From an uncultured Collinsella sp. (GTDB lineage: Bacteria; Actinomycetota; Coriobacteriia; Coriobacteriales; Coriobacteriaceae): a stretch of DNA of 44,213 bases. Below the pieces are notes generated by a model. That model ran no database searches and was not told the DNA's origin. It was given only the letters and a program-made list of their open reading frames with translations. The DNA lies in assembly GCA_958407085.1 (NCBI GenBank), contig CATYHY010000001.1:1-44213 (forward strand). The letters run 5' to 3'. The translations under genes were made by a program, and so were the position numbers. This document shows, piece after piece, positions 16,157 to 36,643 of the stretch; the stretch's first letter is position 1; each line of letters begins with the position of its first letter.

Positions 16157-16248
16157 CGTGTGACCCGTGGGCTACAATTGCCTCATCATGCGAAGGCGCC
16201 TCGTATGGTGTGTACCTGCGTTGGCCGATCTACATTCGGAGGATTCCC

Positions 16249-16608: not shown

Positions 16609-16614
16609 CGGCTG

Positions 16615-16786: not shown

Positions 16787-16815
16787 AAAGTGGCCGGCTG
16801 CGGGCCTGCCCTCGG

Positions 16816-17502: not shown

Positions 17503-17576
17503 TGGGATGTCGTCTAATGGCAGGACAGCGGATTCTGGTTCCGTCAATGGGGGTTCGACTCCCTCCATCCCAGCCA
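17503..17576 (+). tRNA. tRNA-Gln(CTG)
   Basis: Acceptor TGGGATG/CATCCCA, anticodon arm GCGGA-ttCTGgt-TCCGT, GGTTCGACT T-loop, encoded CCA. Confidence 0.97.
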
Positions 17577-17593
17577 TTGCATTTGCTACATAT

Positions 17594-17670
17594 GGCCCGT
17601 TCGTCTAGCGGTTTAGGACGCCGCCCTCTCAAGGCGGAGATCACCAGTTCGAATCTGGTACGGGCTACCA
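17594..17670 (+). tRNA. tRNA-Glu(CTC)
   Basis: Acceptor GGCCCGT/ACGGGCT, anticodon arm CCGCC-ctCTCaa-GGCGG, GTTCGAAT T-loop, encoded CCA. Confidence 0.97.
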
Positions 17671-19349: not shown

Positions 19350-19853
19350 ATGGACAAAACTGCGTTCTTTACGATGCCGAGTGGTCTGTATGTGGTGAGT
19401 GCCGCGGCCGACGGGATGCGTGCCGGCTGCGTCATCAACACGGCGGTGCAGGTGACGTCCATGCCGCCGCGAATTTCGGTTGCCGTGAACAAGGACAACG
19501 TCACCTCGGGCGTCATCGCATCGGCCAAAGCGTTCGCGCTGACCGTGATCGATCAGACCGCCGACATGCTCTACATCGGTAACTTTGGGTTCCGCACCAG
19601 CAGCGATTATGACAAGTTTGCCAAGTACGAGACCCGCGAGACTGCCCTTGGCATGCCCTATGTGCCCGAACACGCGGCGGCGCTGTTTAGTTGCCGTCTG
19701 ATCGACACCGTGGACGTGGGCACGCATCTGCTGTTTATCGGCGAGGTTGAGGATGCCGAGCGTCTGAGCGGCGAGACCCCGCTGACCTATGACTACTACC
19801 ACAAGGTGCTGAAGGGCAAGACGCCGCCCAAGGCGTCTTCGTACCAAGGGTAG
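19350..19853 (+). CDS. Flavin reductase family protein
   Basis: GLYVVSA, GCVINTAVQVTS, NFGFRTS..DKF, DVGTHLLFIGEV, PLTYDYYHKVLKGKTP. Confidence 0.88.
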   Translation: MDKTAFFTMPSGLYVVSAAADGMRAGCVINTAVQVTSMPPRISVAVNKDNVTSGVIASAKAFALTVIDQTADMLYIGNFGFRTSSDYDKFAKYETRETALGMPYVPEHAAALFSCRLIDTVDVGTHLLFIGEVEDAERLSGETPLTYDYYHKVLKGKTPPKASSYQG

Positions 19854-19941
19854 AAATGGTTGAAAACTACTTGCATTATATTATTGAGAATATATACTAA
19901 TAAGCAAGTACACCAGCAGTCACGTTCGAGAGGAGAACATC

Positions 19942-20085
19942 ATGGCTGAGGAAAAGAAGACGTACAAGTTCGTGTGCACCGTTTGCGGTTATGAGGTTGA
20001 GGTCGATACGCCCGAGTTGCCCGAGGATTACGTGTGCCCGGTCTGCGGCGTCGGTCCCGATCAGTTTGAGCTCGTCGAGGAGTAA
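19942..20085 (+). CDS. Rubredoxin (47 aa, not in the ORF track)
   Basis: Translated by hand: [47 protein letters not shown]; two CxxCG knuckles; SD GAGGAG. Confidence 0.93.
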
Positions 20086-20125
20086 CTCGTAGACACACGA
20101 CTTGCAGCAACACATAGCTCTGTCC

Positions 20126-20165
20126 AAGGGTCTCGGTCGGTCACCCCGGCCGGGGCCCTTTTCTT
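20126..20165 (+). terminator. Rubredoxin terminator
   Basis: AAGGGTCTCGGTCGG...CCGGCCGGGGCCCTT followed by TTCTT. Confidence 0.65.
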
Positions 20166-20227
20166 CCGTCCCCAAGGCATCACGGCTGCTATTAGCAGAT
20201 CCTGCCTGTTGTGAGTCCGGCCGACCG

Positions 20228-20530
20228 TTTGTCTCAATCTGTAACATGTGGCGGCTCAAAAAGGGTCTACGTGTTACAGGTTGAGACAAAAGGTTGGAGC
20301 TGAAGAAATGTCTCGATCTGTAACATCTAGAAGCGGAAATTGGGTCTACTTGTTACAGATTGAGACAAACCAAAACCGTCCGGCAGAAAATCTCAATCTG
20401 TAACATCTAGCAGTGAAAACGGGGTCTACGTGTTACAGATTGAGACAAACGGAGCTGTCCCTCGGAATGATCTCGATCTGTAACATCTAGACATCAAAAG
20501 CGGGTCTAGATGTTACAGATCGAGACGTTT
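20228..20530. repeat. Family B palindromic array 1 (4 units)
   Basis: TCTCRATCTGTAACA-N25-TGTTACAGATYGAGA units starting 20232, 20311, 20391 and 20471. Confidence 0.96.
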
Positions 20531-20553
20531 GCCTGGGTGGGTGTCCCGTCCCA

Positions 20554-21810
20554 TCACATCCCCGTTAGCAGCACGATGTCGAGAGCCGTCACAATGGCAC
20601 CGATCCCTACGAGCAACGCGTTGAGCGGGCGCGAGTTGGCGTATTTGCCCATGACACGGCGTGAGCTGGTGAGCCGTATGAGCACAAAGACCGTAATCGG
20701 CAGTTGAAGCGACAGCAGTGCCTGACTCCAGATGAGACCTTCAAAAGGATTCGGGACGACCAGGCACGCCGCCACTGCACCGACGAAACAGGCTGCCACC
20801 CCGATCGAGGAATGTCGGTCGTGGATGTCGTATTCCTCGTCGAACATGCCCGCCGAAATGGTGCCCGCCGCCATGCCCGCCGTCACACTGCTCGATAGGC
20901 CCGCAAACAGCAGCGCCACCGCAAAGATGGTCGAGCTCGCCGGGCCCAAGATGGGGGAGAGCGTGGCCGCTGCGACAGCGAGGTCGTCTACGACCATGCC
21001 GTGCGCAAAGAAGGTCGTTGCGGCCAGGATGACCATGGCCGAGTTGATTGCCCAGCCCACGCCCATCGAAAAGAGCGTGTCGAAGAGTTCGTAGCGCAGG
21101 CGTTCTTCGATAACCTGCTCGCCTTGGCCTTCGAAGTGCATGGATTGGATGACCTCGGAGTGTAGGAAGAGGTTGTGTGGCATAACGACCGCACCCAGGA
21201 CACTCACGATAATCGCGGCAGAGCCAGTGGGCATACTGGGCGTGATCCAGCTTGCGGCGGCTTGCGGCCAGTCGACCTTGACCAGCGCAAGCTCGGCTAA
21301 AAACGAAAGTCCTACCACGCCCACGAAGGCGATGATCCATTGCTCGGCGCGTTTGTAGGAGCTTGTCATGAGCATGGCAATCGATGCCGCCGCCACGATG
21401 ATGCAGCCGGCGCGTACGGGCAGGCCAAAGAGCATTTGAAGCGCGATCGCGCCGCCCAGCACTTCGGCCATGGCGGTGGCGATGGTCGCGAGATAGGCAC
21501 TGGCGAGCACCGTGCGCCCAACGAAGCGGGGGAGGTAACGTGTCGTGGCCTCGGCAAGGCAGGCGCCCGTGGCGATGCCCAGGTGCGCCGCGTTGTGCTG
21601 CAACACGATGAGCATAATCGTGGACAGCGTGACGATCCACAGCAGCGCGTAGCCAAACTGCGAGCCGGCGGCCATATTGGAGGCCCAATTGCCCGGGTCG
21701 ATAAAGCCGACGGTCACGAGCAACCCGGGGCCGATATGCCGCGCGATGTCGAGTCCTCCGTGGCCACCGGTGCGCGGGGAGCCAAAGTGATGTTTGAGAT
21801 GGTTGAGCAT
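20554..21810 (-). CDS. mntH: Nramp family Mn2+/divalent metal transporter
   Basis: GPGLLVTVGFIDPGNW, GAVVMPHNLFLHS, SQALLSLQLP; SD AGGAG favours ATG 21810. Confidence 0.93.
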   Translation of the reverse strand: MLNHLKHHFGSPRTGGHGGLDIARHIGPGLLVTVGFIDPGNWASNMAAGSQFGYALLWIVTLSTIMLIVLQHNAAHLGIATGACLAEATTRYLPRFVGRTVLASAYLATIATAMAEVLGGAIALQMLFGLPVRAGCIIVAAASIAMLMTSSYKRAEQWIIAFVGVVGLSFLAELALVKVDWPQAAASWITPSMPTGSAAIIVSVLGAVVMPHNLFLHSEVIQSMHFEGQGEQVIEERLRYELFDTLFSMGVGWAINSAMVILAATTFFAHGMVVDDLAVAAATLSPILGPASSTIFAVALLFAGLSSSVTAGMAAGTISAGMFDEEYDIHDRHSSIGVAACFVGAVAACLVVPNPFEGLIWSQALLSLQLPITVFVLIRLTSSRRVMGKYANSRPLNALLVGIGAIVTALDIVLLTGM

Positions 21811-21870
21811 GGTGCGCTCCTGCGTGCCGTTTGTTTGACGCCGCAAAGGATACCCGTTTTAGGCTCAAAA

Positions 21871-21886
21871 GTTAACCAAGACTAAC
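21871..21886. promoter_or_regulatory. Candidate DtxR/MntR-family operator upstream of mntH
   Basis: GTTAACCAAGACTAAC imperfect palindrome flanked by A-tracts, about 60 bp upstream of the start. Confidence 0.45.
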
Positions 21887-21931
21887 AAAATTGCTGTATT
21901 TGAATAGGATGGTGAAGGGGGGCTGCCGAAA

Positions 21932-22153
21932 TGTCTTGATCTGTAACAACTAGGGATGGAAATTGGGTCTAGGTGTTACAGATCGAGACAGGAAGAAATG
22001 GTCCTATGGAATATCTCGATCTGTAACAGCTGACCGCCAAAACCGGCCCTTCGTGTTACAGATTGAGACATTCGGAGCCGTCTCTCAAAAACATCTCAAT
22101 CTGTAACAGCTAGTCGTCGAAGTTGGGTCTTCCTGTTACAGATTGAGATGTTT
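21932..22153. repeat. Family B palindromic array 2 (3 units)
   Basis: Left arms at 21934, 22014 and 22094; right arms at 21974, 22054 and 22134. Confidence 0.96.
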
Positions 22154-22332
22154 GAAGCGGTGAGTTTACGGGCCGAACCTGGGGTCCTTGCTGTCGCCCT
22201 TGAGCTCGGCGGTGTCCACTCGTAGGGCGCGCGTTACGCGATTGTTTCGAAACGGGCGGGAAACACAACGGGCCGGCGATGCACCTAGTATGCCTAGTCA
22301 ACTGACTGTCTAACACCTAGGGGAGGATCGCG

Positions 22333-25300
22333 ATGCAGGCAGATTCCGCTCAGCAGCAGGGCCTTTATCGCCCCGAATTCGACCACGATGCATGTGGCAT
22401 CGGCGCGCTTGCCGATATCAACGGTGAGCGCCATCACCAGATTCTGGACGATGCGCTGTCCATTCTGGTCAACTTGGAGCACCGCGGCGGCACAGGACTC
22501 GAGAAGAACACTGGCGACGGCGCTGGCATCCTGTTCCAGGTTCCGCATCACTTTTTCCGTAAAGAGGCTCAAAAGTGTGGCCAGATTCTGCCGGCAGAGG
22601 GCGACTATGGCGTGGCCATGCTGTTCTTCCCGCAGGACGAGAAGGGCGTAGAGGATGCCCGCCGCGTGTTTGAGGAGGGCTGCGCCGAGGCTGGCGTGCC
22701 GCTGCTCTTTTGGCGCGAGGTGCCGGTCGACCCGCACGACCTGGGCGAGACAGCCCGCGCCTGCATGCCCACTATCCTTCAGGCCTTCCTGGGCCGACCG
22801 GACGACACGCCGGCGGGCGACGCCTTCGAGCGCCGTCTGTACGTGTGCCGCCGCACCATCGAGAAGAAGGCCGATGCCGAGTTTGCCCTGCGCGACAAGA
22901 TCTTCTACGTGTGCTCCATGAGCTCGCGCACCATCGTGTACAAGGGCATGCTGGTCGCCACGCAGATGCGCCGCTTCTTCATCGACCTCAACGACGCCGC
23001 CGTCAAGACGGCCGTGGCGCTCGTCCACTCGCGCTACTCCACCAATACCACGCCCAGCTGGGAGCGTGCACATCCCAACCGCTTTATCATCCACAACGGC
23101 GAGATCAACACCCTCAAGGGCAACGTCAACTGGATTCGCGCCCGCGAGCCCAACCTGTACAGCCCCGTGCTGCAGCACGATCTTGAGCGCGTGATGCCCA
23201 TCATCAACCGCGAGGGCTCCGACTCCGCGATTCTGGACAACGTGCTCGAGTTTTTGGTCATGAACGGCCGTCCGCTCACGCGCGCCGCATCCATGCTGCT
23301 GCCCGAGCCGTGGGACCACAACGACAGCCTGAGCGAGGAGCGCCGCGCCTACGACGCCTACCAGTCCATGCTCATGGAGCCGTGGGACGGTCCTGCCGCT
23401 ATCGCCTTTACCGACGGTCGCACGCTGGGTGCCGCCCTCGACCGTAACGGCTTGCGTCCCGCCCGCTACTATGTGACGCGCGACGGTCGCTTTATGCTGG
23501 CAAGCGAGGTGGGCACCATCGAGGTGAGCCCCGAGAACATCCTGACGAGCGGCTGCCTGGGACCGGGCCAGATGCTCGAGGTCGATTTTGCCCGCGGCCG
23601 CGTCATCTACAACGACGAGCTGCGCGCCCGTTACGCCAAGGAAAAGCCCTATCGCGACTGGATCGCCGAGGAGACGCTGACCGTCGACGCACTCGACAAG
23701 CCCGCCGCGCCCGCGCCCGCCGAGGATGCCGAGGTGCCCGCCGCCGTGCGCATGGCCAAGCTCGGGTATCACTGGGATGATGTTGACGAAGTCGTGCGTC
23801 CCATGGCCCAGCAGGGCAAGGCGCCGCTCGCCTCGATGGGTGTCGATGCGCCGCTGGCCTGCCTGTCCAAGAAGACGCGCTCGTTCTTCGACTACTTCTA
23901 TCAGCTGTTCGCTCAGGTCACGAACCCGCCGATCGACGCCCTGCGCGAGCATATGGTCACCTCGACCACGCTCTACCTGGGCAACCACGGCAACCTGCTC
24001 GAGGACTCCCGCACGGCCTGCCAGCTGGTGCGTCTGGAGTGCCCGCTGCTGAGCGAGGAGGAGTTCGACCGCATTTGCGCGATTGACCGTGTTGGCTTTA
24101 AGACCCGCCGGTTCCGTGCCGTGTACCGCCGCGATGCGGGTGAGGGCGCGCTGCAGGCTGCGCTCAAGCAGCTTGCAGAGGACGTTGAGGCTGCGGTCCG
24201 CGACGGCGTGAACATCGTGGTATTGAGCGACCGCGCTGCCGCAGGCGAGGTACCCGTACCGTCACTGCTCGCCGTGGGCTGCGTGCACAACCACCTGATC
24301 CGCGCCGGCGTGCGTACCTTTGCCGACATCGTGGTGGAGTGCGGCGATGCCGTGTCCCCGCACGACTTTGCGGCGCTGGTGGGCTACTCCGCGAGCGGCA
24401 TCTATCCGTACAACGCGCATGCGTGCATTCGCGACTTGGCGGCGCACGGCGATCTGGACGTGACAGCCGAGCAGGGCATCGCCAACTACAACAAGGCTGC
24501 GACCGCCGGCATCGTTTCCATCATGTCCAAGATGGGCATCTCCACAGTGCAGAGCTACCATTCGGCGCAGATCTTCGAGGCCGTGGGCTTTACGCCGGAG
24601 TTCGTCAATGCGTACTTCGCTGGCACGGTGAGCCGTGTGGGCGGTATGGGTGTCGAGGACGTTGAGCGCGAGCAAAACGAGCGCTACGACGCCGCGCTCG
24701 CTATCCTTAAGAGCCCGGCTCCCGATCAACTGCCCACGCTGGGCCTGACCAAGTGGCGCCCGCTTGGCGGCGAGGATCACCTCATCGATCCGCAGACTGT
24801 CTACTTGCTGCAGACCGCCTGCCGTGAGGACAGCTACGACACCTTTAAGGAGTACAGCGCCCGCCTGCACCGCACCGGCCGTGCCGTGCGCCTGCGTGAC
24901 CTGCTGGACTTTAATGCCAACGGTCGCACGCCGGTTTCGCTCGACGAGGTGGAGCCCGCGCTCAACATCGTCCGCCGCTTTAACACCGGCGCCATGTCGT
25001 ACGGTTCCATCAGCAAAGAGGCACACGAGTGCATGGCCATCGCCATGAACCGCCTGCACGGTCGTTCCAACTCGGGCGAGGGCGGCGAGGATCCGCGTCG
25101 CGAGACCCCGCTGGCCAACGGTGACTCCAAGAATTCCGCCATCAAGCAGGTGGCAAGCGCGCGCTTTGGCGTGACGAGCCGCTACCTGTGCAGCGCCTTT
25201 GAGATTCAGATCAAGATGGCCCAGGGCGCCAAACCCGGCGAGGGCGGACACCTGCCCGGCAAGAAGGTCTACCCCTGGATTGCCGAGGTCCGTCAGTCCA

Positions 25301-27018
25301 CGCCCGGCATCGGCCTGATCTCGCCTCCGCCGCACCACGACATCTACTCCATCGAGGACCTGGCGGAGCTTATCTTCGATCTTAAGAACGCCAACCCCGG
25401 CGCGCGCGTGTCGGTCAAGCTGGTCAGCGAGGCCGGCGTCGGCACCATCGCCACCGGTGTGGCCAAGGGCGCGGCCGACAAGATCTTGATCAGCGGTCAC
25501 AATGGCGGCTCGGGCGCCGCTGCGCGCGACTCTATCTGGCATGCGGGCCTGCCGCTGGAGCTTGGCCTTGCCGAGGCCCAGCAGACGCTGCTGCAAAACG
25601 GCCTGCGCTCGCGCGTGGTGCTCGAGGCCGATGGCAAGCTCATGGACGGCACCGATGTTGCTGTCGCTTGCCTGTTGGGCGCCGAGGAGTTTGGCTTTGC
25701 TACCATGCCACTCATCTCCATGGGCTGCCTCATGCAGCGTGACTGCCAGCAGGATACCTGTCCGGCCGGCATCGCGACGCAAAACTGCCGCCTGCGTCAC
25801 GGCTTCCGCGGTAAGCCCGAGCACGTTGAGCACTTTATGCTCTTTGTGGCCGAGCAGCTGCGCGAGATCATGGCGAGCCTGGGCTTCCGCACCATCGACG
25901 AGATGGTCGGCCATCCCGAGTGCTTGCGTCAGATCGAGGTCCCGGGCAACCGCAAGGCAAACCTGCTCGATCTGTCGCCCGTGCTGGCGAGCGCGACCTG
26001 CGAGTTCGGTGCCCATATCCCGGGTGCCGACGGTCGCCACTTCCTGCCGCAGATGGCCGCGGACAGCGAGCTCGACAAGACGCTCGACTCCACGTTGTTT
26101 GTGCCCTATACGGCCGATGCCCGTGCACACCTGCGTCCGATTCGCTTCCGCGCCGATATCGCCAACGTCAACCGCTGCGTGGGCACCATCTTGGGCAACG
26201 CGGTGACCAAGGCGCATCCCGAGGGCCTGCCCGCCGGCTCCATCACCGTCGATTGCGATGGTTCGGCCGGTCAGAGCTTTGGTGCCTTCCTGCCGCGCGG
26301 CATTACGCTCAACGTGTGCGGCGACGCCAACGATTACTTTGGCAAGGGCCTTTCGGGCGGCGAGGTGTCGGTGCGCCCCAATCCGCATGCGACCTACAAG
26401 TTCGACGAGAACATCATCGTGGGCAACGTTGCGTTCTTTGGTGCTACGAGCGGCCGCGGCTTCATTAACGGTCTTGCCGGCCAGCGTTTTGCCGTGCGTA
26501 ACTCCGGTGCCACCGTGGTGGTCGAGGGCTGCGGCAATCATGGCTGCGAGTACATGACGGGCGGTCTGGCGCTCATCCTGGGCGAGGTCGGGCAGAACTT
26601 TGCCGCCGGTATGACGGGCGGCGCGGCCTATGTCTTTGACCAATACGGCACGCTCGACGCCCGCGTGAACCATGAGAGCGTGGAGCTCAAGGCCCCGACG
26701 GCCGACGAGCTGGCGCAGATTCGTGCGCTCATCCAAGAGCACGTGGACGCGACGCAGAGCCCGCGCGGCATTAAGCTGCTCTACAGCTTTGAGACGATGA
26801 GCAAGCACTTTGTGAAGGTCATTCCGACTGAGTACGAACGCGTGCTGGCGATTGTCGCTGCGGCCGAGCCCGTGGGCAAGACGCATGCGCAGGCTGAGGA
26901 GCTGGCGTTTGACATTGTGACCGGTCGCGCGAGCGCCGCGGATGTCGCTCGCTTCGATGTCACGGGCGCTGCGTCCGTGGCTGCCAGCTCTGTTGCTTCG
27001 AACAAGAAGGAGGCGTAA
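22333..27018 (+). CDS. gltB: Glutamate synthase large subunit
   Basis: HDACGIG N-terminus, HSRYSTNT, HNGEINT, EPWDGPA, QIKMAQGAKPGEGG, ISPPPHHDIYSIEDL, Fe-S cysteines. Confidence 0.98.
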   Translation: MQADSAQQQGLYRPEFDHDACGIGALADINGERHHQILDDALSILVNLEHRGGTGLEKNTGDGAGILFQVPHHFFRKEAQKCGQILPAEGDYGVAMLFFPQDEKGVEDARRVFEEGCAEAGVPLLFWREVPVDPHDLGETARACMPTILQAFLGRPDDTPAGDAFERRLYVCRRTIEKKADAEFALRDKIFYVCSMSSRTIVYKGMLVATQMRRFFIDLNDAAVKTAVALVHSRYSTNTTPSWERAHPNRFIIHNGEINTLKGNVNWIRAREPNLYSPVLQHDLERVMPIINREGSDSAILDNVLEFLVMNGRPLTRAASMLLPEPWDHNDSLSEERRAYDAYQSMLMEPWDGPAAIAFTDGRTLGAALDRNGLRPARYYVTRDGRFMLASEVGTIEVSPENILTSGCLGPGQMLEVDFARGRVIYNDELRARYAKEKPYRDWIAEETLTVDALDKPAAPAPAEDAEVPAAVRMAKLGYHWDDVDEVVRPMAQQGKAPLASMGVDAPLACLSKKTRSFFDYFYQLFAQVTNPPIDALREHMVTSTTLYLGNHGNLLEDSRTACQLVRLECPLLSEEEFDRICAIDRVGFKTRRFRAVYRRDAGEGALQAALKQLAEDVEAAVRDGVNIVVLSDRAAAGEVPVPSLLAVGCVHNHLIRAGVRTFADIVVECGDAVSPHDFAALVGYSASGIYPYNAHACIRDLAAHGDLDVTAEQGIANYNKAATAGIVSIMSKMGISTVQSYHSAQIFEAVGFTPEFVNAYFAGTVSRVGGMGVEDVEREQNERYDAALAILKSPAPDQLPTLGLTKWRPLGGEDHLIDPQTVYLLQTACREDSYDTFKEYSARLHRTGRAVRLRDLLDFNANGRTPVSLDEVEPALNIVRRFNTGAMSYGSISKEAHECMAIAMNRLHGRSNSGEGGEDPRRETPLANGDSKNSAIKQVASARFGVTSRYLCSAFEIQIKMAQGAKPGEGGHLPGKKVYPWIAEVRQSTPGIGLISPPPHHDIYSIEDLAELIFDLKNANPGARVSVKLVSEAGVGTIATGVAKGAADKILISGHNGGSGAAARDSIWHAGLPLELGLAEAQQTLLQNGLRSRVVLEADGKLMDGTDVAVACLLGAEEFGFATMPLISMGCLMQRDCQQDTCPAGIATQNCRLRHGFRGKPEHVEHFMLFVAEQLREIMASLGFRTIDEMVGHPECLRQIEVPGNRKANLLDLSPVLASATCEFGAHIPGADGRHFLPQMAADSELDKTLDSTLFVPYTADARAHLRPIRFRADIANVNRCVGTILGNAVTKAHPEGLPAGSITVDCDGSAGQSFGAFLPRGITLNVCGDANDYFGKGLSGGEVSVRPNPHATYKFDENIIVGNVAFFGATSGRGFINGLAGQRFAVRNSGATVVVEGCGNHGCEYMTGGLALILGEVGQNFAAGMTGGAAYVFDQYGTLDARVNHESVELKAPTADELAQIRALIQEHVDATQSPRGIKLLYSFETMSKHFVKVIPTEYERVLAIVAAAEPVGKTHAQAEELAFDIVTGRASAADVARFDVTGAASVAASSVASNKKEA

Positions 27019-27023
27019 GTGCC

Positions 27024-28505
<1,482 letters not shown>

Positions 28506-28516
28506 AGTAGTCATTT

Positions 28517-28577
28517 AAGAACGTCCCCAACGACTAGTCATTGGGGACGTTCTTTTTTGTCTAGTCGTTGGGGACAC
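28517..28577. terminator. Long hairpin/terminator after gltD with a duplicated right arm
   Basis: AAGAACGTCCCCAACGACTAGTCATTGGGGACGTTCTT followed by T-run, then a second arm CTAGTCGTTGGGGAC at 28561. Confidence 0.7.
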
Positions 28578-28870
28578 TCTTCACGGGGCGCCTGTTCGTT
28601 TGTCGACGTATGGGTGTTCATTTGTCGACTTCTTGGGCTGTGGTCACCTGTTGTTTCTGTGGTGGCTGCGGGCATCTGGCTCAAAAGGGCGGGTTGGCTG
28701 TCTATGTCTACCTGCGGTTTCTTTGCGGTGCGCTCATTCGGTCAAGTGTCCCGTCAAGTGTTTGGTTAGCATCTGGTTTGCAGTCGAAGGCCTATTTTGC
28801 CCGCGCTGACAGTGGCTGCTCGCCCTCCTCGTAAGCTCAAATTGAGGTTCATCAGTTTGAGGAGGATGCC

Positions 28871-29578
28871 ATGACTGACCAAGTTTTTGACCGAGCACAG
28901 CTGGCCGAAGCCGTCGGCAGCGATATTGCCGACATGGCTCACTTTTGGATGCTGCGGAAGTTTCAATTCCTGGAGCCGGCGCGCGAGCGGTTCGAGATTA
29001 TCGTCGATCCGTGGCTCAGCTATTGCGAGGAACCTTCTCAAAACGAAATCATGGCCTACAACATGGCGTTTACCGATTGGCTGCTGTTTGAGCGCCCCTA
29101 TTACCACGGCAAGACGCTGTTGGAACTGTATGTGGACGAGCCGCCAGCGTCAATTTCTCCAGCTTCGCTCGGGCGACTTAAGCGGGTGCGTGACACGCAG
29201 TATTTCTCGTGCTTTGGCATTTTGGACAAGGATCCCGCGACTGGCATGGTCGTGCTGGAGGATACGCGCACCGACCGTCGCTTTGACGTCTACGACCCAC
29301 ATATCGTGCAAAAGGAGCACTGGAACGATGGCGCGATTGCGGTGCGACTCGCGTGCGTCGACGATGTCTGGCTGACGGCGGGGCAGCTCTACCTGTATGA
29401 CGTCGCGCGGCTGAGCGACACGGCGGTCGACGGGCCGGGCGCGGTGCATCCCGAGGACCTAGAGGACGGTTTCGACACCTCGTGCATCAGCTTCTTTTTG
29501 CGCCTGGTCCGCGACATCATGGGTGCTCAGGGGCGCTACGTAAAGTCGCTCAATATTTACGAGCAGGAGTGGGAGTAG
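28871..29578 (+). CDS. Hypothetical protein (acidic, 235 aa)
   Basis: Strong SD GAGGAGG and plausible codon usage; no family confidently recognised. Confidence 0.75.
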   Translation: MTDQVFDRAQLAEAVGSDIADMAHFWMLRKFQFLEPARERFEIIVDPWLSYCEEPSQNEIMAYNMAFTDWLLFERPYYHGKTLLELYVDEPPASISPASLGRLKRVRDTQYFSCFGILDKDPATGMVVLEDTRTDRRFDVYDPHIVQKEHWNDGAIAVRLACVDDVWLTAGQLYLYDVARLSDTAVDGPGAVHPEDLEDGFDTSCISFFLRLVRDIMGAQGRYVKSLNIYEQEWE

Positions 29579-29611
29579 GGAGTGGGCTGTCGCAGCGCCG
29601 CCGCCTGTCTA

Positions 29612-29756
29612 TTTGTCTCGATCTGTAACGTTTAGGGACAAAAAACCGGTCTACCTGTTACAGATCGAGACAGAGGTTAGACGCACGACTGAAAATCTCA
29701 ATCTGTAACAACTAGAGGCTCAAAGACTGTCTTCCTGTTACAGATCGAGACGTTTG
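29612..29756. repeat. Family B palindromic array 3 (2 units), upstream of nuclease-like gene
   Basis: Arms at 29616, 29656, 29696 and 29736. Confidence 0.96.
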
Positions 29757-29804
29757 CCGACAGCGGCAACGGTGACAACGGCCCATTTCCCTGATGTGGT
29801 GGTG

Positions 29805-30848
29805 ATGAAAGTGTCTAATACCGTTCTTAAACACAAGCAGGCGACACGTAACACCTTGGCGCGGAATAGGATGCTTGCCAGGCTCACGGAGGCGGCTGAG
29901 CAAGGCGTGCTGCTTGTGACGCACGACAATGCCGAGCTCATGTGGCTGCGGCGTCATGTGGGAACCGATGATATTGCGGAGCCCGAGCCGTATTTGTTCT
30001 GCTTTCAGCATGATTGGGTTGTACTGACGCCGGCGGAGCGAGCGCTGCGGACCATTAAAGGGCTTGCGGAGTTTCATCCAGACTGGGCGTTTTGGGGTTA
30101 TGACGCGGCACTTTTGTGGGGTCTGGAGGTGCCGAATGATCTGCTCGGGCCGCGATTTCTTGTTAAGACAGGTTGCTCGGTGCCGCTGAGTGCAGGATGC
30201 CGACTGTTGCGTCCGCAGACGGCGGGTGCGCTCGAGAGTGTTGACGGCGTGCAGGTTACGTCGTTTTGGCACACGGTAGAGGATTGCCTGCTGCGTGCGC
30301 CGTTTTCGTATGGCCTGGCGATTGCCGATTCTGCGTTGCGAGCAAAGGGCGTATCGCGCGATGACTTTTGTGAGCGGCTTCGTATGGATTGTGAAGGCAA
30401 GCGCGGGTATCGCAGAGCGCAGGTGATTGCGTCGTATGCGGACGGGCTGTCCGAAAACGGCGGCGAGTCTCGTTTTCGGGCGTTCTTTATTGCGTACGGC
30501 TTTCCAGTTCCGGAACTGCAGGTGGAGTTTCGTGATCCGCTCGATCCGAGCCAAGTGTTTCGCGTTGATTATTTTTGGAGGCTCGAGGACGGAACGTGCG
30601 TGATTGGCGAGCTGGACGGAAAGGGGAAGTATGCCTTGCAGAACGACGAGGGTCGGGAGTTGATCGACCCATTCGTGGCAGAACGTCAGCGAGAGTCTCA
30701 TCTGACGATGCTTGGGCACAAGGTGCTTCGGTTTACGTTTGATGAGCTCAAGAATCCGGGGAAGCTGGTTGAGAAGATGAGGCTGGCGGGAATTCCACAG
30801 CGGGCCGATTTGGCTGAGGAATGGAGATGCCGGTGGTATGGGCGCTGA
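29805..30848 (+). CDS. AbiEi-like / DUF559 (Vsr-like PD-(D/E)XK) endonuclease-domain protein
   Basis: AALLWGL, VQVTS..TVEDC, LAIADSALR, SENGGESRFR..GFPVPELQ, FRVDYFW, IGELDGKGKY, ERQRESHLTMLGHKVLRF. Start uncertain (29805 or 29871); the 29754 TTG lies in the repeat flank. Confidence 0.78.
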   Translation: MKVSNTVLKHKQATRNTLARNRMLARLTEAAEQGVLLVTHDNAELMWLRRHVGTDDIAEPEPYLFCFQHDWVVLTPAERALRTIKGLAEFHPDWAFWGYDAALLWGLEVPNDLLGPRFLVKTGCSVPLSAGCRLLRPQTAGALESVDGVQVTSFWHTVEDCLLRAPFSYGLAIADSALRAKGVSRDDFCERLRMDCEGKRGYRRAQVIASYADGLSENGGESRFRAFFIAYGFPVPELQVEFRDPLDPSQVFRVDYFWRLEDGTCVIGELDGKGKYALQNDEGRELIDPFVAERQRESHLTMLGHKVLRFTFDELKNPGKLVEKMRLAGIPQRADLAEEWRCRWYGR

Positions 30849-30886
30849 GGGGTGCAGCTGATGCGGATGTGGTTGTTCCTGTCGAG

Positions 30887-31031
30887 TTTGTCTCAATCTG
30901 TAACAACAAGGGACCGTTTGGCCTCGTAACTGTTACAGGTCAAGACAGAAGGTTGGCGCCTGCTGAAAGATCTCAATCTGTAACATCTAGAGGCTGAAAA
31001 CCTGTCTATTTGTTACAGATTTAGACGTTTG
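30887..31031. repeat. Family B palindromic array 4 (2 units), downstream of nuclease-like gene
   Basis: Arms at 30891, 30931, 30971 and 31011. Confidence 0.95.
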
Positions 31032-31175
31032 GCGACGGGGCTGGAGTGGGGCTGCAACGCATTCCGTTCCCCGCATCTCCTTCTTCTTCCCGTTAGCCGA
31101 TATGTCCGGCTTTAGTTTGCTGCATTAGGTGATAATGGACAAATGTTCAAGTTAATCGTGAGGGAGGAGCTCGAT

Positions 31176-32546
31176 ATGGCGACTGCCGATCGTCCCACGT
31201 TGTTTATCAATGCGACCGTCCTGGATGGCTCGGAGCATATGGAGCCGCAGCCCGATATGGCCGTGGCCGTTGAGCGCGGTGTCATCACCTGGATTGGCCC
31301 GAGCGCCGTGGCGCAGGCGCCGGCGGGTGCCGAGGTCATCGACCTGGCGGGTGCGTATCTCATGCCGGGTCTCATCAATATGCACGTGCATCTGTGCGGT
31401 TCGGGCAAACCGGTCTCGGCGGGCGATGCGGGCGCGCTGATGAAGAAGCTCGATAATCCGGTGGGCCGCGCCATCGTCCGCCACATCCTCAAAGGCAGCG
31501 CTCAGCAGCAGCTGGCAAGCGGCGTGACCACGGTGCGCGGTGCAGGCGACCCGCTGTTTGCCGATCTGGCCGTGCGCAACGCCATCGACGCCGGCAAGTA
31601 TCAGGGTCCGCGTCTGGTAGCACCGGGAACGGGTGTCACGGTGCCGGGTGGTCACGGTGCGGGCCTCTTTGCGCAGGTGGCCAATACCCCCGACGAGGCG
31701 GCCGAACAGGTGCGCGATCTGTATGCGCGCGGTGCCGACGTCATCAAGCTGTTCGTGACGGGTGGCGTGTTCGACGCGACCGAAGTGGGCGAGCCGGGCG
31801 TGCTACGCATGCCGGTCGAGGTTGCCGCTGCGGCGTGCAAGGCGGCGCACGAGGTTGGCCTTCCGGTCATGGCCCATGTCGAGAGCACCGAAGGTGTGAA
31901 GGCCGCGCTTCAGGCTGGCGTCGACACAATCGAGCACGGCGCTCCGATAACCTCCGAGATTCTGGAACTGTACCGCGGCGCCGCGGGAACACAGCTCGAG
32001 GGACGCGCGCCGAGCGTGACCTGCACGATCAGTCCGGCGCTGCCGTTTGTGTTGCTCGATCCGGAAAAGACCCATTCGACTGATACGCAAAAGAAGAACG
32101 GCGACATCGTGTGCTCGGGCATTATCGAGAGTGCTCGTGCGGCGCTGGAAGCCGGTATCAAGGTGGGCCTGGGCACGGATTCGAGCTGCCCGTTCGTGAC
32201 ACAGTACGACATGTGGCGCGAGGTGGCCTATTTTGCCGAGTACGTGGGCGTGAGCAATGCCTTCGCACTGCATACAGCCACGAAGGTCAATGCTGAGCTG
32301 CTGGAGCTGGGCGGCGAGACCGGTACGATCGAGTGCGGCAAGGCGGCTGACATTTTGGTGACGCGCGAGAACCCGCTCGATGACCTGTGCGCTCTGCGTG
32401 AGCCGATGCACGTGATGTGCCGCGGTGACCTGGTGCGCAAGCTGAAGGTCAAGCGCATCCCCGAGGTTGACACCGAGCTCGACGCGATTATGGCCATGCC
32501 GGCAGAAGCCCTGGCAGAGGAGCTTGCCCGCGATGGCGTAGCGTAA
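31176..32546 (+). CDS. Metal-dependent amidohydrolase (prolidase-like subfamily)
   Basis: MPGLINMHVH (HxH), SGVTTVR, GADVIK, VMAH, DTIEHG, GLGTD, GKAADI; SD GGAGGAG. Confidence 0.9.
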   Translation: MATADRPTLFINATVLDGSEHMEPQPDMAVAVERGVITWIGPSAVAQAPAGAEVIDLAGAYLMPGLINMHVHLCGSGKPVSAGDAGALMKKLDNPVGRAIVRHILKGSAQQQLASGVTTVRGAGDPLFADLAVRNAIDAGKYQGPRLVAPGTGVTVPGGHGAGLFAQVANTPDEAAEQVRDLYARGADVIKLFVTGGVFDATEVGEPGVLRMPVEVAAAACKAAHEVGLPVMAHVESTEGVKAALQAGVDTIEHGAPITSEILELYRGAAGTQLEGRAPSVTCTISPALPFVLLDPEKTHSTDTQKKNGDIVCSGIIESARAALEAGIKVGLGTDSSCPFVTQYDMWREVAYFAEYVGVSNAFALHTATKVNAELLELGGETGTIECGKAADILVTRENPLDDLCALREPMHVMCRGDLVRKLKVKRIPEVDTELDAIMAMPAEALAEELARDGVA

Positions 32547-32588
32547 ACGCTGGTGCGACAGCTTCATCGAATGATGTCGCTCCATGCA

Positions 32589-32623
32589 AAAAGCCGAGGT
32601 CTCAACGCGAGGCCTCGGCTTTT
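32589..32623. terminator. Bidirectional terminator
   Basis: AAAAGCCGAGG...CCTCGGCTTTT between convergent genes. Confidence 0.8.
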
Positions 32624-32645
32624 ATTTTGTCCTATGGTGTAGCGG

Positions 32646-33119
32646 CTAGGAGCGCGTCTCCATCTTGGCGTGGCACTTGGGGCAGGTGACGCGGATCTTG
32701 CCCTTGCCCTTGGGGACGGACAGCATCTGGCCGCAGTTGGGGCACTTGAGGTAGGCCGTGGTCTTGCGACCCTTCCACATCTTCTTGGCCGTTCGCTTGG
32801 CGCGCTCAAAGTCCTCCTTGCTGGTACCAGCGGCACGCGAAGCGTTTGCGGCCGCAGTCCCGCCGCCCAAGCTAGCGACGAACTTGCCGAGGCCGGGGAC
32901 GTTTGCGGTCGCCGTAACAAAGGCGTCGTTCTCCTTGCGGCGCGCGTCGATGTTTTTGGACAGGCCGCGCAGCACGCCAATCACGATAACGGCGATGGCG
33001 ATCCAGCTGAGCCACTGAATACGGGCCATCGATCCGATCATCGCGATGACGATTCCAGCAAAGCCCATCACGATGGTGAGCTCGTCGGCGCCGTTGCGAC
33101 CCTTCATAAAGTCATTCAT
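32646..33119 (-). CDS. Conserved membrane protein with C-terminal zinc ribbon
   Basis: FMKGRNGADEL, two TM segments, CPNCGQMLSVPKGKGKIRVTCPKC. Confidence 0.85.
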   Translation of the reverse strand: MNDFMKGRNGADELTIVMGFAGIVIAMIGSMARIQWLSWIAIAVIVIGVLRGLSKNIDARRKENDAFVTATANVPGLGKFVASLGGGTAAANASRAAGTSKEDFERAKRTAKKMWKGRKTTAYLKCPNCGQMLSVPKGKGKIRVTCPKCHAKMETRS

Positions 33120-33166
33120 GCAGAACTGCCTTTCATTTCGCTGTGCTGCACGCTTTTATACCCCTT

Positions 33167-33233
33167 TTGGTGCAAGGGGGACAGGTTAATCTGCACCAAG
33201 GTGGTGCAAACGTACCTGTCCCCCTTGCACCAA
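33167..33233. repeat. Family D palindromic doublet, copy 1
   Basis: TTGGTGCAAGGGGGACAGGT...ACCTGTCCCCCTTGCACCAA; each half is itself bounded by TGGTGCA/TGCACCA. Confidence 0.9.
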
Positions 33234-33506
33234 TTACTTGGCGAGCTTGTCGACGACGCGCTCTATCTCGGCGAGCTTGGCGGCTTTGAGCTCCTCGTCG
33301 CCCGATTCGATGGCCGAGGCGACGCAGCCCTCGATGTGTGCCTTCAACACATCGGCGTTGATGCGGGCGATGAGCGCCTGCGTGGCCATGAGCTGCGTGG
33401 AGATGTCGACGCAGTAACGGTCCTCCTCCACCATCCGCAGGATGCCGTCGATTTGCCCACGTGCCGTTTTGAGCATGCGGGTCACCGATTTATGGTCTGC
33501 CATCAT
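33234..33506 (-). CDS. csoR: CsoR/RcnR family copper-sensing repressor
   Basis: RGQIDGILRMVEEDRYCVDISTQL, HIEGC Cu ligands; downstream of copA-copZ. Confidence 0.92.
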   Translation of the reverse strand: MMADHKSVTRMLKTARGQIDGILRMVEEDRYCVDISTQLMATQALIARINADVLKAHIEGCVASAIESGDEELKAAKLAEIERVVDKLAK

Positions 33507-33548
33507 GGCGGGTCCTCGTTTCTGGTCGATTTTCCGGATGCCCCCGTC

Positions 33549-33615
33549 AGTTGCGGTGAAATAGTTCTTGTTTGCAGGCTTGAAGCGCTAAAACAGGAAC
33601 TATTTCACCGCAACT
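33549..33615. repeat. Family A palindromic element, copy 3 (inside cop operon)
   Basis: AGTTGCGGTGAAATAGTTCTTG...CAGGAACTATTTCACCGCAACT, 67 bp. Confidence 0.93.
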
Positions 33616-33641
33616 TCTGAGGATTGAGTAGGCGGCGTCTG

Positions 33642-33863
33642 CTACGCGGCGGTCACGGACAGGGCGTGGAACTTCTCGCCCGCGCCCTCGACGGCGGCGG
33701 TGAGCTGCTCGGCGGTCACGGTGTCGGCGCACTCTACCTGGACGGTCTGGGTCTCGTGATCGGCGTCGGCATCGGTCACGCCTGCCACGTTGAGCAGCGC
33801 CGTCTCGACAGTGGCGTCGCAGTGGCCGCACATAAGGCCGGAAGTCTTAATCGTGTAACGCAT
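33642..33863 (-). CDS. copZ: Heavy-metal-associated (CopZ-like) chaperone
   Basis: GLMCGHC HMA motif, 73 aa; SD GAGAGGA before ATG 33863. Confidence 0.85.
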   Translation of the reverse strand: MRYTIKTSGLMCGHCDATVETALLNVAGVTDADADHETQTVQVECADTVTAEQLTAAVEGAGEKFHALSVTAA

Positions 33864-34010
33864 GGATATTCCTCTCTGTTGTGTCGGCTTTCCCAGGCAC
33901 CCGACCTTGACCTTCAAGCCGTCGCTCGCGTACCAAAGTACGCGCCGCTCCTCTTTCAGGTCGATCTCTGGCACTTGGAAAACCGGTTCTAAATGGACTT
34001 AATGGTGAGC

Positions 34011-36353
34011 CTATTTTGCCACTTTAGGCTTAAAGGATTTCAGGCGCAGAGCATTGCTTACGACGCACACGCTCGACAGGCTCATGGCCGCGGCGCCGAA
34101 CATCGGCGAGAGCTGCCAGCCGGTGAGGGGGAAGAACACGCCCGCGGCGAGCGGAATGCCGATGCCGTTGTAGAACAGTGCCCAGAACAGGTCCTGCTTG
34201 ATGTTGCGGATCGTGGCGCGTGAAAGCTCGATGGCGCGGGCGACGTCCATGAGGTCGCTGCGCATGAGTACCACGTCGGCTCCCTCCTTGGCGATGTCGG
34301 CGCCGGTGCCGATAGCAAGGCCCACGTCGGCGCGCGCCAGGGCGGGGGAGTCGTTGATGCCGTCGCCCACCATGGCGACCTTGCCGCCCGCATGCTGCAG
34401 TTCGCGCACGTGGCGTTCCTTGTCGGCGGGGAGGACGTCGGCGATGACCTGTTCGCTGCTCAGCTCCACGCGGCGGGCGATGGCCTCGGCCGTCACGCGG
34501 TTGTCGCCGGTGAGCATGCGCACATCGACGCCGAGCGAACGCAGCGCGGCGATGGCCCCGGCGCTCGTCTCTTTGATCTCGTCGGCCGCGGCGATGGTGC
34601 CGACGAGCTCGCCGTTCTTGGCAAAGAACAGCGGCGTTTTGCCCTCGGTGGCAAATTGCTCGGCAAGGTCCGTAGGCACGGCAGCGCCCAACTCGCCCAT
34701 GAAGCGCACGTTGCCGGCCGCGATGATATTCTGCCCCTCGCGTGCCGTAACGCCACGACCGGGCACGGCGGCAAAGTCCTCGACCATGCGTGCGACGATT
34801 CCGCGCGACTCGCACTCGGCCATAATCGCCTCGGCCAGCGGGTGCTCGCTCGAGCGCTCTAACGCGGCGGCCAGCTTGAGCAGCGCCTTTTCGCTCATGG
34901 CGGGCGAGCCGTCGGCGCGCGTGGCTACCACGATATCGGTTACGGTAGGCTTGCCGCGGGTGACGGTGCCCGTCTTGTCGAGTACCACGGTGCCCACGCT
35001 GCGCAGGTTCTCCAGCGCCTCGGCGCTCTTAAACAGGATGCCCATCTCGGCGCCCTTACCGGTGCCAACCATAATGGCGACGGGCGTGGCCAGGCCCAGC
35101 GCGCACGGGCAGCTGATCACCAACACGGCCACGGCGGAGGTGAGCGCCTCGTTTATGCTGCCGGTCAGTGCCATCCACACCGCAAAGGTCACGGCCGAGA
35201 TCACGAACACCACGGGCACAAACACGCCGGCGACCTTGTCGGCCAGGCGGGCGATGGGCGCCTTGGTGGCGTTGGCGTCCTCGACGAGCTGGATGATCTT
35301 GGCGAGCGACGTGTCGGCGCCCACGCGCGTGGCACGGAAGGTAAACGATCCGGTGCGGTTGACGGTTGCGGCGTTGACGGTGTCGCCGGCGGTCTTTTCC
35401 ACGGGGATGGACTCGCCGGTGAGCGCACTCTCGTCCACGGCCGAGCTGCCCTCGAGCACCACGCCGTCGACAGGGATAGACTCGCCGGGGCGCACACGCA
35501 GCACCTGGCCGGGAAGGATGCTGTCGACGTCCACGGTGGTTTCGGTGCCGTCGTCGGCAACGACGGTCGCGGTCTTGGGTGCCAGGTCGATCAGCGCCTC
35601 GATAGCGCCGCCGGTCTTGGATTTGCTGCGCGTCTCGAGGTATTTGCCCACGGTGACGAGCGACAGGATGGTGCCGGCGCTCTCAAAATACAGGTTGTCC
35701 ATGCTCGTCATCATGGCCTCGCGCACCTGACCTGCGGCCAACTGGTCGGCCATGATGAACATGGCGTAGAGCGACCAGGCGATCGACGCGGTGGCGCCGA
35801 CGGCGATGAGAGCGTCCATGGTGGGCGCGCCATGCACGAGCGACTTGAAGCCGTTGATAAAGTACGCGTCGTTGATGTAGACGATGGGGATGAGCAAGAC
35901 GAGCTCGGTGAGGGCAAGCGTCATGCTGTGGACGTGGTCCGTGAAGATGCCGGGCAGCGGCCAGCCGAGCATGTGCCCCATGCCTATGTAGAACAGCGGG
36001 ATGAGAAAGATGATTGAGATGATGAGACGGGTGCGCATGGCGGAGGCAGTGGCCTCCAGCTTTTTGGTCGGCGACTCCATATGGGCGGCGCCGGACCTGG
36101 CTTGCGCGCTGCCGCTTGAGCTGGTGGCATCGGTGTCCGCGCTGACGGGCGAGGCCGAATAGCCCGCGCGGTCGACGGCAGTGCAGATATCGTCGGGGGA
36201 GACCTGCGCGGGGTCATAGTCCACCAACATGGAGCCGGCGAGCAAGTTGACCGCGACGCTTTGGACGCCGTCGAGCTTGCTGACGGCGCGGTCCACGTGC
36301 GCCTGGCAAGCGGCGCACGTCATGCCGCCCACGTCAAACTTATCTTGAGCCAT
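34011..36353 (-). CDS. copA: Cu(I)-translocating P1B-type ATPase
   Basis: [41 protein letters not shown]. Confidence 0.96.
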
Positions 36354-36411
36354 GGCTTCTCCTTTCTGTAGTTCGGTGTTGGAATTGTTAACCTGCCGAT
36401 ACTATACACCC

Positions 36412-36428
36412 ATACCCCCTGGGGGTGT
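36412..36428. promoter_or_regulatory. CsoR operator in cop promoter
   Basis: ATACCCCCTGGGGGTGT, a C-tract/G-tract palindrome typical of CsoR operators; minus-strand TATAGT at 36401-36406. Confidence 0.75.
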
Positions 36429-36500
36429 CTAGTCCAGAAAGAAATGTATGACATTCCGATACAGATGAGGGCGGCTGCTCAATCGTTGTCAGCCCCTGTC

Positions 36501-36643
36501 AAACATCTCAATCTGTAACATCTAGCAGGGAAAATGAGCTCTAACTGTTACAGATCGAGATGTTGTTTTGCGTGGCTGAGCTCTGTCTTGATCTGTAACG
36601 GTTCGGCCGGTTTTTGCTGAGCAACTGTTGCAGATTGAGACAA
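36501..36643. repeat. Family B palindromic array 5 (2 units)
   Basis: Arms at 36506, 36546, 36586 and 36626. Confidence 0.94.

Follow-up and report, generated by a model that had tools for sequence, protein, structure and literature searches.

Here we describe Family B, a family of short inverted-repeat units that forms five intergenic arrays in a 44,213-nt stretch of DNA from an uncultured Collinsella sp. (contig CATYHY010000001.1; the whole stretch is called the window). Our preferred reading, to which we give a probability of about one in two, is that Family B consists of ancient extragenic palindromic units resembling the BIME-2 (bacterial interspersed mosaic element) arrays of Escherichia coli, which would be kept as duplex sites of a clade-specific DNA-binding protein. 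Each genome has about 20 fixed intergenic sites, at which units follow one another head to tail, joined by 25-26-bp linkers, and the combination of exact arms and an exact A/T centre, A/T tracts indifferent to orientation, strict lengths, uncompensated variants, fixed sites and tolerance of copy-number change points to duplex protein-recognition sites. To judge from sequence comparison, neither a replicating element nor an RNA gene nor a decaying relic would show such a conservation pattern.

As a genus, Collinsella reaches high abundance in the human gut, and disease links have been reported for it. A search of 8.1 million full texts and 0.36 million preprints, using the genus with repeat terms and the arm motif, found no published description of Family B, which is apparently undescribed so far. 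Its arm (12 of 15 bases exact), 3-bp A/T centre and two fixed spacer lengths, kept over more than 100 species amid randomised sequence, provide bait for a new sequence-specific DNA-binding protein. Family B would also extend BIME- and REPIN-like biology, known mainly from Proteobacteria, to Coriobacteriia, and may show what such elements become after their mobility ends; there is, in addition, a minority chance that it represents a new kind of chromosomal cis-element. On the practical side, the approximately 20 loci behave like variable-number tandem repeat (VNTR) markers with 80-bp steps and could be used to type Collinsella strains.

Family B arrays in the window

Matches to the 15-bp arm TCTCRATCTGTAACA (up to two mismatches) number 26 in the window, all within positions 20232-36640, against a mean of 0.12 in shuffled versions of the window, where none of 100 shuffles reached 26. 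The arms alternate strictly in orientation (+ - + -) at a start-to-start distance of 40 bp, with a single exception of 39 bp, and make up 13 units (15-bp arm, 25-bp core, 15-bp arm) in five intergenic arrays of 4, 3, 2, 2 and 2 units, all delineated by the arm motif and assigned to neither strand:

20232-20525, no strand, array A1, 4 units (20232-20286, 20311-20365, 20391-20445, 20471-20525)
21934-22148, no strand, array A2, 3 units (21934-21988, 22014-22068, 22094-22148)
29616-29750, no strand, array A3, 2 units (29616-29670, 29696-29750)
30891-31025, no strand, array A4, 2 units (30891-30945, 30971-31025)
36506-36640, no strand, array A5, 2 units (36506-36560, 36586-36640)

Loops are 25 nt long in 13/13 units, and linkers are 25 nt in seven of eight cases and 24 nt in the other, so that both the 40/80-bp lattice and the spacer lengths described in the earlier note on this DNA, which was made from the letters alone, are borne out. 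The window has a G+C content of about 60%, and the Family B arms are A/T-rich. Tandem Repeats Finder, run on the window, reported only the first array (period 80, 3.7 copies, 76% matches); A2-A5 are hence visible solely through the arm motif, which shows the extent of spacer divergence.

The anatomy of the unit

To define the unit beyond the window, 385 non-redundant copies were compiled from the window's own metagenome-assembled genome (G000; 1.67 Mb, 247 contigs, 73% complete) and from 136 loci of a scan covering one genome per prokaryote species. The Family B unit is a 55-bp dyad made of an arm TCT-N-R-ATCTGTAACA, a 25-bp core and the inverted arm. Loop length is 25 nt in 381/385 units and 26 nt in the remaining four, while the 241 linkers measure 24 nt (7), 25 nt (146), 26 nt (86), 27 nt (1) and 37 nt (1). 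The suspicion that spacing is constrained is upheld by these figures, as 240/241 linkers fall between 24 and 27 nt although loops of different units are only ~50% identical (30% when shuffled).

The loops follow the consensus NN-TAG-(S-rich 6)-WWW-(S-rich 6)-CTA-NN, and the linkers have a Y-WWW start, a G+C-rich middle and a WWW-R end. A loop consensus had been proposed for the window and indeed exists, but the A-rich centre that went with it is not general, since 160 of 381 loops have a T-rich centre, compared with 194 A-rich and 27 tied ones, and even in the window 2/13 loops are T-centred, including that of the first A4 unit, whose right arm carries two mismatches. As read off the position tables, each unit has an A/T tract at its dyad centre and one ~30 bp away on both sides, the last being separated by 20 bp from the tract that opens the following unit; the occurrence of such tracts in either orientation is expected of duplex shape readout and not of a hairpin loop. 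The 15-nt arm itself holds no internal dyad, and the sole tag-like motif, NTAG in the core (~80% per base), is neither fixed nor placed at a hairpin foot. The units also carry CTAG, the most avoided 4-bp palindrome in G000 (observed/expected 0.16), with 26 of 967 copies inside the 46 units of that genome.

The flanks of the arrays were likewise compared. In the window, TTTG|TCTC starts three arrays and GA(C/T)GTTTG ends four, as had been noted; the polarity read from these flanks is, however, no family feature, because outside arrays both CAAAC and YGTTTG flanks are found on either side. A target-site duplication was considered for the GTTTG present on both sides of A1, A3 and A4 and was rejected, as this sequence belongs to the family's flank consensus.

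Family B is confined to one Collinsella clade

With at most one mismatch allowed, G000 contains 88 arms (a control pattern gave 0), which make up 46 units; these are grouped into 18 arrays, the smallest with one unit and the largest with seven. The genome-wide distance check suggested in the earlier note returned the sharp peak it anticipated: 43/44 plus-to-minus arm pairs at 40-41 bp lie exactly 40 bp apart, and 28 minus-to-plus pairs have distances of 39-42 bp. For six of the 18 arrays a contig end is no more than 200 bp away, which indicates that the repeat breaks short-read assembly.

Among other Collinsella genomes, 22/24 carry 40 to 120 arms, while no arm was found in 16 genomes representing 16 other genera of Coriobacteriales. 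In a wider draw, 113 of 120 genomes of other Collinsella species hold 13 to 57 exact-core units and seven hold none; in none of the five of these examined with three mismatches allowed did a unit turn up. The one-genome-per-species prokaryote scan gave at least 136 loci; among the matches listed, 120 are titled Collinsella (including C. aerofaciens) and 16 are otherwise or uninformatively labelled. Among the genomes compared, Family B is confined to one Collinsella clade, with all or none per genome. Analogous arrays built on another arm were sought in a 19-kb region around gltB of one arm-less genome (G045), and none was found.

A collection of 50,697 phage records gave no match to Family B. 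Units are present on ten IMG/VR contigs, where most lie no more than ~3.5 kb from an end, and these are likely the host flank of predicted prophages. In G000, one array stands ~110 bp away from a phage-type integrase gene and the 3' fragment of a tRNA (locus C35:5140-6787), which probably accounts for the units near the ends of those ten contigs. PLSDB yielded a single match, an 899,693-bp C. aerofaciens record. A phage or plasmid origin was rejected on these grounds, that is, the absence of phage-record matches, the location of IMG/VR units near contig ends and the lone, very large PLSDB record.

Sites are fixed while the number of units varies

Grouping 155 arrays by the similarity of their flanks resulted in 22 clusters, 19 of which have 3 to 13 members and three of which are singletons (one a chance arm pair in G000). 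At the site orthologous to A1, species carry 4, 3, 2 or 1 units or a single degenerate unit (0.5 to 4; ~19-30 species), and at that of A2 they carry 3, 2 or 1 (~19-30 species); the A3 and A4 sites each range from 1 to 4 units across species, and the A5 site has two units in all three other genomes in which both anchors were found. The lengths of the intergenic spacers at orthologous sites change in ~80 bp steps, in agreement with the stepwise gain or loss that the earlier note had proposed to look for. Invariance of both number and position had been held to favour static sites over a mobile or amplifying element; position turned out to be invariant, which favours static sites and tells against mobility, whereas number did not. 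As judged from these alignments, the comparison shows the sites to be static while unit number shifts in ~80 bp steps. Different lineages lack different units, and the junctions fall in arms.

Divergence between orthologous pairs is distributed very unevenly, with mean pairwise differences of 0.045 in arms, 0.194 in loops, 0.222 in linkers and 0.099 in flanks. Broken down by position, the difference does not exceed 0.045 at arm positions 1-3 and 6-15 and amounts to 0.15-0.16 at position 4 and 0.25-0.28 at position 5; values are 0.018-0.031 in the loop centre and 0.16-0.35 in the 12 bases outside the arms. For this per-position analysis the pairs were picked by loop similarity, which biases loop divergence low. 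Loop identity is 0.52 between adjacent units (n=247) and 0.50 between different arrays of one genome (n=952), compared with 0.30 when shuffled, and none of the 952 between-array pairs reaches 0.9 identity. These values indicate units that are old, equidistant from each other and held only at defined positions and lengths. In the aligned copies, the spacers are shown to be kept in length only, their sequence diverging freely.

Recent tandem duplication was rejected because adjacent loops are hardly more alike than loops from separate arrays (0.52 vs 0.50), and ongoing inversion of the core between its arms was rejected because, of 596 orthologous loop pairs, all have the same orientation and 0 are flipped. 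Within arrays, in turn, loop orientation is mixed, which suggests that separate insertions side by side, early in the clade, laid the units down; by our reading, whole 80-bp steps have since then only been gained or lost via arm-arm recombination. The possibility that Family B is an amplifying or mobile element, raised in the earlier note, finds little room here, given 155 arrays at 22 sites and adjacent units no closer than distant ones, and neither a flanking transposase gene nor an autonomous element was found for it. Likewise, no full-length insertion sequence with Family B ends, and no arm pair at the distance of such an element, was detected in G000 or among the listed arms (100 of 118) of the closed genome G021.

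Identical arms in over 100 species, next to spacers that differ by 16-35% just 1 bp away, are also difficult to reconcile with a functionless relic of an old MITE-like (miniature inverted-repeat transposable element) burst, whose arms would owe their conservation to homogenisation or a low mutation rate. Homogenisation within genomes would yield species-specific arms, and arm mismatches within units stay uncorrected. A relic would be in keeping with the failure to find a mobilising gene or recent copies and with copy number changing through arm recombination, yet spacer length is kept despite saturated sequence divergence and the avoided tetramer CTAG is retained, so we regard a relic as hardly probable at all.

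Selection acts on sequence, as aligned copies suggest, and not on pairing

If the units were kept as hairpins, changes in one arm should be answered in the other. At arm position 5, the pairs formed between the two arms (G-C 109, A-T 95, A-C 92, G-T 87) fit independence, and position 4 shows 124 single changes and 0 compensated pairs. Wobble-type arm changes number 87 vs 92, 25 vs 22 and 22 vs 20 on the top and bottom strands, and mirrored loop positions are no more complementary than shuffled partners, often less so. Being uncompensated and strand-symmetric, the changes give no sign of hairpin selection at the varying positions and none of an RNA-like strand preference. Within their reach, such alignments show purifying selection for sequence, and not for pairing, on both the arms and the A/T core centre, which fits the earlier suggestion of protein sites.

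The same data bear on whether Family B might act at the RNA level, with transcribed hairpins serving as stabilisers, RNase III sites, terminators or small RNAs. The predicted RNA fold of A1 is strong (-152 kcal/mol, z-score -13.8), and REP (repetitive extragenic palindromic) elements are reported to act in such ways (PMC3333891). However, G-U strand asymmetry and compensatory changes are missing, the loop centre is A-rich or U-rich about equally, and arrays sit in divergent promoter spacers. Rfam, searched with the whole window, matched two tRNAs at 17503-17667 only and left the arrays unmatched; a scan of 19900-22400 found no terminator-like site in A1 or A2 and no promoter-like hexamers; and the gene upstream of A1 has a hairpin and T-run of its own, read in the sequence near 20128-20157, ahead of the array. 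We consequently consider an RNA-level element very unlikely. RNA-seq of a related strain (two raw runs and two contig sets, 19800-22400, 84% likeness) gave few array reads, in both directions and partly cross-mapping from other arrays, in a strain whose A1 is a one-degenerate-unit allele and from libraries that lose small RNAs; these reads weigh on neither side of the question whether the units are transcribed.

Separately, stranded RNA-seq of the related strain over 19800-21890 covered the Nramp gene (-) about tenfold more in the direction of the upstream + gene than in the opposite one, and depth drops at the hairpin and T-run near 20128-20157. With the strand convention of the library assumed, this Nramp coverage may be read-through antisense from the upstream + gene.

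Genomic context of the arrays

In the window, a flavin-reductase-like gene (+) and the Nramp gene (-) converge on A1 with their 3' ends, A2 lies between the divergent starts of Nramp (-) and gltB (+), A3 lies immediately upstream of a DUF559-like open reading frame (ORF), A4 is found between this ORF and an amidohydrolase gene (+), and on the two sides of A5 a heavy-metal P-type ATPase gene (-) and a DEAD-box helicase gene (+) start in opposite directions. Intrinsic terminators differ from Family B in this respect, and the view that the arrays are not ordinary terminators gains from it, as A2 and A5, two of the five window arrays, are bounded by divergent starts and A1 and A2 contain no terminator-like site. 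In about half of the species compared, a phosphoglycerate-mutase-like gene stands between Nramp and A2 (e.g., G021:C1:1077653-1082169); it is absent at window positions 21846-22333.

Across G000, arrays occupy convergent, tandem and divergent spacers, those on contigs C19 and C119 lying between converging genes, and the neighbours share no common theme (thiD, a PTS component, prfC, LacI regulators, a peptidase and a Clp ATPase). Two array sites adjoin genes of nitrogen assimilation, namely gltB and a type III glutamine synthetase gene. The presence of arrays in all types of spacer beside unrelated housekeeping genes makes a structural role likelier than a gene-specific one.

Could the arrays nevertheless be operators of a transcription factor that governs their neighbours, a regulon of ~20 loci? 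Sequence-conserved dyads at fixed positions would suit such a role, as would the placement of A2 and A5 in divergent promoter regions and the two nitrogen-assimilation neighbours. We find it improbable, because the A1, C19 and C119 arrays are between convergent 3' ends, the neighbours lack a shared theme, and the units at one promoter vary from 1 to 3 or 4 between species. The lone regulator gene directly beside an array, a small GntR gene at the C46 array, was rejected as a partner: it has a palindromic operator of its own in its promoter, which is also present in five arm-less species.

At the scale of the chromosome, array sites are spread over the closed genome G021 (dnaA at 1.77 Mb), with the largest gap, ~0.55 Mb around the presumed terminus, by estimate not clearly beyond chance. 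One replichore has 13 A-centred and 18 T-centred loops and the other has 7 and 16, respectively, and replication polarity of the loops was rejected from this comparison.

Resemblance to BIME-2 and REPIN elements, and candidate partner genes

The closest parallels come from REP-derived elements. REP and BIME sequences are defined as imperfect palindromes of 20-40 nt with a conserved GTAG (or CGTC) foot tag (PMC3333891, PMC3733652). BIME-2 of E. coli consists of tandem REP copies whose number at a locus varies between strains, and is reported to bind IHF, PolI and gyrase (PMC3333891). REPINs of Pseudomonas fluorescens are conserved sequences in inverted pairs, 71 or 110 bp apart, some of which form ordered tandem clusters with a period of 184 bp (PMC3116915).

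Family B and BIME-2 are both extragenic and composed of alternating short conserved sequences joined by two kinds of linker that are far more variable, and both have tandem copies in strict + - + - order with a number that varies per locus (0.5 to 4 over ~19 species in Family B). The differences are equally clear. The Family B arm is non-palindromic and has no GTAG/CTAC tag, its spacer lengths are far stricter, no RAYT (REP-associated tyrosine transposase) gene is flanked by it, and its host is a Gram-positive actinobacterium. In addition, Family B has ~20 sites per genome, with nearly all copies in arrays, compared with ~600 REPs in E. coli, and its tandem copies at one locus are dissimilar, whereas those of E. 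coli BIME-2 are described as well conserved. With REPINs, Family B shares an inverted pair at a fixed distance that is able to form a hairpin, ordered clusters and vertical inheritance; REPINs are, however, mostly single, dispersed, present in many near-identical copies and located beside a RAYT gene, while in Family B near-identical copies, site polymorphism and an adjacent RAYT gene are all absent.

Such likeness raises the alternative that Family B is a non-autonomous unit whose single-stranded hairpin form is read by an HUH/Y1 enzyme from another part of the genome, which would have made the arrays and would maintain their arms. Pfam Y1_Tnp was matched in 40/41 Collinsella genomes, and the one without a Y1 match (G015) also lacks arms. 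G000 has two RAYT-like genes of ~270 aa (C2:4395-5201 and C22:2083-2889), both above the Pfam Y1_Tnp cut-off and both under the cut-off of the NCBIfam model for REP-associated tyrosine transposases (E 1e-10 and 4e-15); they represent two conserved single-copy genes in Collinsella. No Family B arm was found near any Y1 gene examined.

The C22-type gene (269 aa; G000:C22:1987-3005, G021:C1:775290-776385) is flanked by inverted copies of the 18-bp GTCTGTCCCCAATGAGTG, and this layout is a regular REP-RAYT arrangement for a different repeat family. That family has 7-10 exact copies of a 13-mer, and related TCATTGGGGACAG motifs give 55 matches.

The C2-type gene has no repeats beside it in six loci examined. 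Its orthologues (at least 76% identity) are listed for most arm-bearing genomes, while the seven arm-less genomes have paralogues of at most 40% identity or none. This tracking of arm-bearing genomes by the C2-type gene, the architectural parallels with REPIN pairs and BIME-2 tandem copies, and the mixed loop orientation, which fits separate insertions better than tandem duplication, all speak for a transposase-read hairpin. Set against them are four arm-bearing genomes of 97-99% completeness (G112, G114, G116, G122; 22-39 units) from which the C2-type orthologue is missing, the lack of insertion polymorphism and of near-identical copies expected from REPIN populations, and the arm's own lack of a palindrome and a fixed GTAG tag. 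Moreover, the clade split is phylogenetically confounded, since other clade genes follow the same split. The C2-type protein keeps the HUH motif and, in 5/5 species examined, has Ser at the Tyr of the paralogue's DYIHLNP motif, a residue that we take to be the catalytic nucleophile of the RAYT-like paralogue. On balance, a transposase-read hairpin seems to us unlikely. With its Ser and a helix-turn-helix-like stretch at the C-terminus, the C2-type protein, which is highly conserved in the arm-bearing clade, may instead be a domesticated, non-cutting form and is a candidate Family B binder.

One further gene in the window adjoins the arrays directly:

29754-30848, + strand, DUF559/Vsr-like ORF of 364 aa (Pfam DUF559, E 0.029, below the cut-off)

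This ORF fills a linker position between A3 and A4. Orthologues with 85-95% identity occur in most arm-bearing genomes, but are absent in three (G003, G016, G044), where one unit is left between the same neighbours; most genomes have 2-4 paralogues at 28-41% identity that adjoin no array, and two arm-bearing genomes (G047 with 25 units, G077 with 13 units) have no homologue. The ORF was rejected as a partner for these reasons and is probably accessory.

How Family B might work, and what weighs against it

Under the preferred reading, kept duplex sites of a clade-specific protein, each unit would be a double-stranded recognition site for a dimer of that protein, and the A/T tracts, both those in the middle of the dyad and those bordering the arms on the outside, would contribute through shape readout or bending. 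Neighbouring units might be bound cooperatively, which would account for the kept linker length. Possible roles include nucleoid organisation, a topological or transcriptional insulator, and a landmark for recombination or repair. Slippage, or unequal recombination between arms at an 80-bp distance, would cause copy number to drift.

Several points weigh against this reading. No binding protein was identified among the RAYT-like, DUF559-like and GntR genes looked at. Each unit is predicted to fold as single-stranded DNA at -7 to -22.8 kcal/mol, and since invariant arm positions cannot covary, a protein could read the hairpin stem in the style of RAYT on REP. A site may have anywhere from 0.5 to 4 units without obvious cost, so that any role must tolerate change in dosage, and 80 bp corresponds to 7.6 turns at 10.5 bp per turn, which makes simple same-face cooperativity not evident. 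The conservation could in principle serve the element and not the host. As for the measurements, single units were matched as orthologues by similar loops or by an equal number of arms, a procedure that may overstate spacer divergence (0.194/0.222), and the genomes behind the unit counts and orthologous pairs are related, so that these data are not independent.

A more specific version of the reading holds that the arrays are cis-elements of a clade-private chromosome-structuring system, whose ~20 fixed landmarks of phased dyads, their A/T tracts in phase at distances of 30, 30 and 20 bp, would carry a wrapped or filamentous nucleoprotein with ~80 bp per dimer, the candidate protein being the RAYT-like one with Ser. 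This is quite unlikely in our estimation. If the RAYT-like protein were the binder, a transposase-repeat pair would have been domesticated into nucleoid architecture.

Comparison with other repeat systems

MIRU-type VNTR loci of mycobacteria comprise tens of intergenic loci with tandem units of 40-100 bp in strain-variable number. They are direct repeats and are not known to have dyad arms or the contrast of conserved arms beside free spacers that characterises Family B. Plasmid centromeres such as sopC of the F plasmid and iteron arrays consist of phased tandem units, each with an inverted repeat to which a dimeric protein binds and from which it spreads or builds up a higher-order complex; these arrays, however, belong to one replicon and lie next to the genes of their binding proteins, whereas Family B has ~20 chromosomal sites and no adjacent partner gene. 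Like bacterial MITEs, Family B is short and gene-less with terminal inverted repeats of ~15 bp; it differs from them in having no consistent target-site duplication, ends just 25 bp apart and sites fixed across the clade. Unlike in CRISPR arrays, the arms alternate in orientation, and the cores share a consensus and are conserved at the same site between species. The arm was also considered as a CRP site and rejected, because a predicted mycobacterial CRP site holds ATCTGTAACA by chance and the arm misfits TGTGA-N6-TCACA.

Other repeats and sequence features

A second repeat in G000 is a hairpin of ~40 bp, AAACCACCACAAAGG-TGCCTGTCCCC-TTTGTGGTGGTTT, preceded by an A-run and followed by a T-run like a two-way terminator (e.g., C119:1012-1060, C121:150-190, C156:3459-3500 and C19:3802-3840). 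Its half-sites number 52 in G000, seven of them within 150 bp of a Family B array, far above the expectation from random spacer placement; in the window, a search for the hairpin returned only noise at three mismatches. The sequence TATTTCACCGCAAC and its close variants occur 78 times in G000 (up to two mismatches), never near Family B arrays, and may be a CRISPR repeat or another interspersed family. A further sequence, AAGAACGTCCCCAA, is present in 59 copies in G000.

Elsewhere in the window, a 62-bp tandem repeat at 16626-16744 (1.9 copies, 82% matches) overlaps the ORFs 16210-16608, 16621-17070 and 16230-16688. Within 32564-33992, two long + ORFs (32670-33620 and 33624-33992) have no family match, and their composition suggests that they are shadows of - strand genes.

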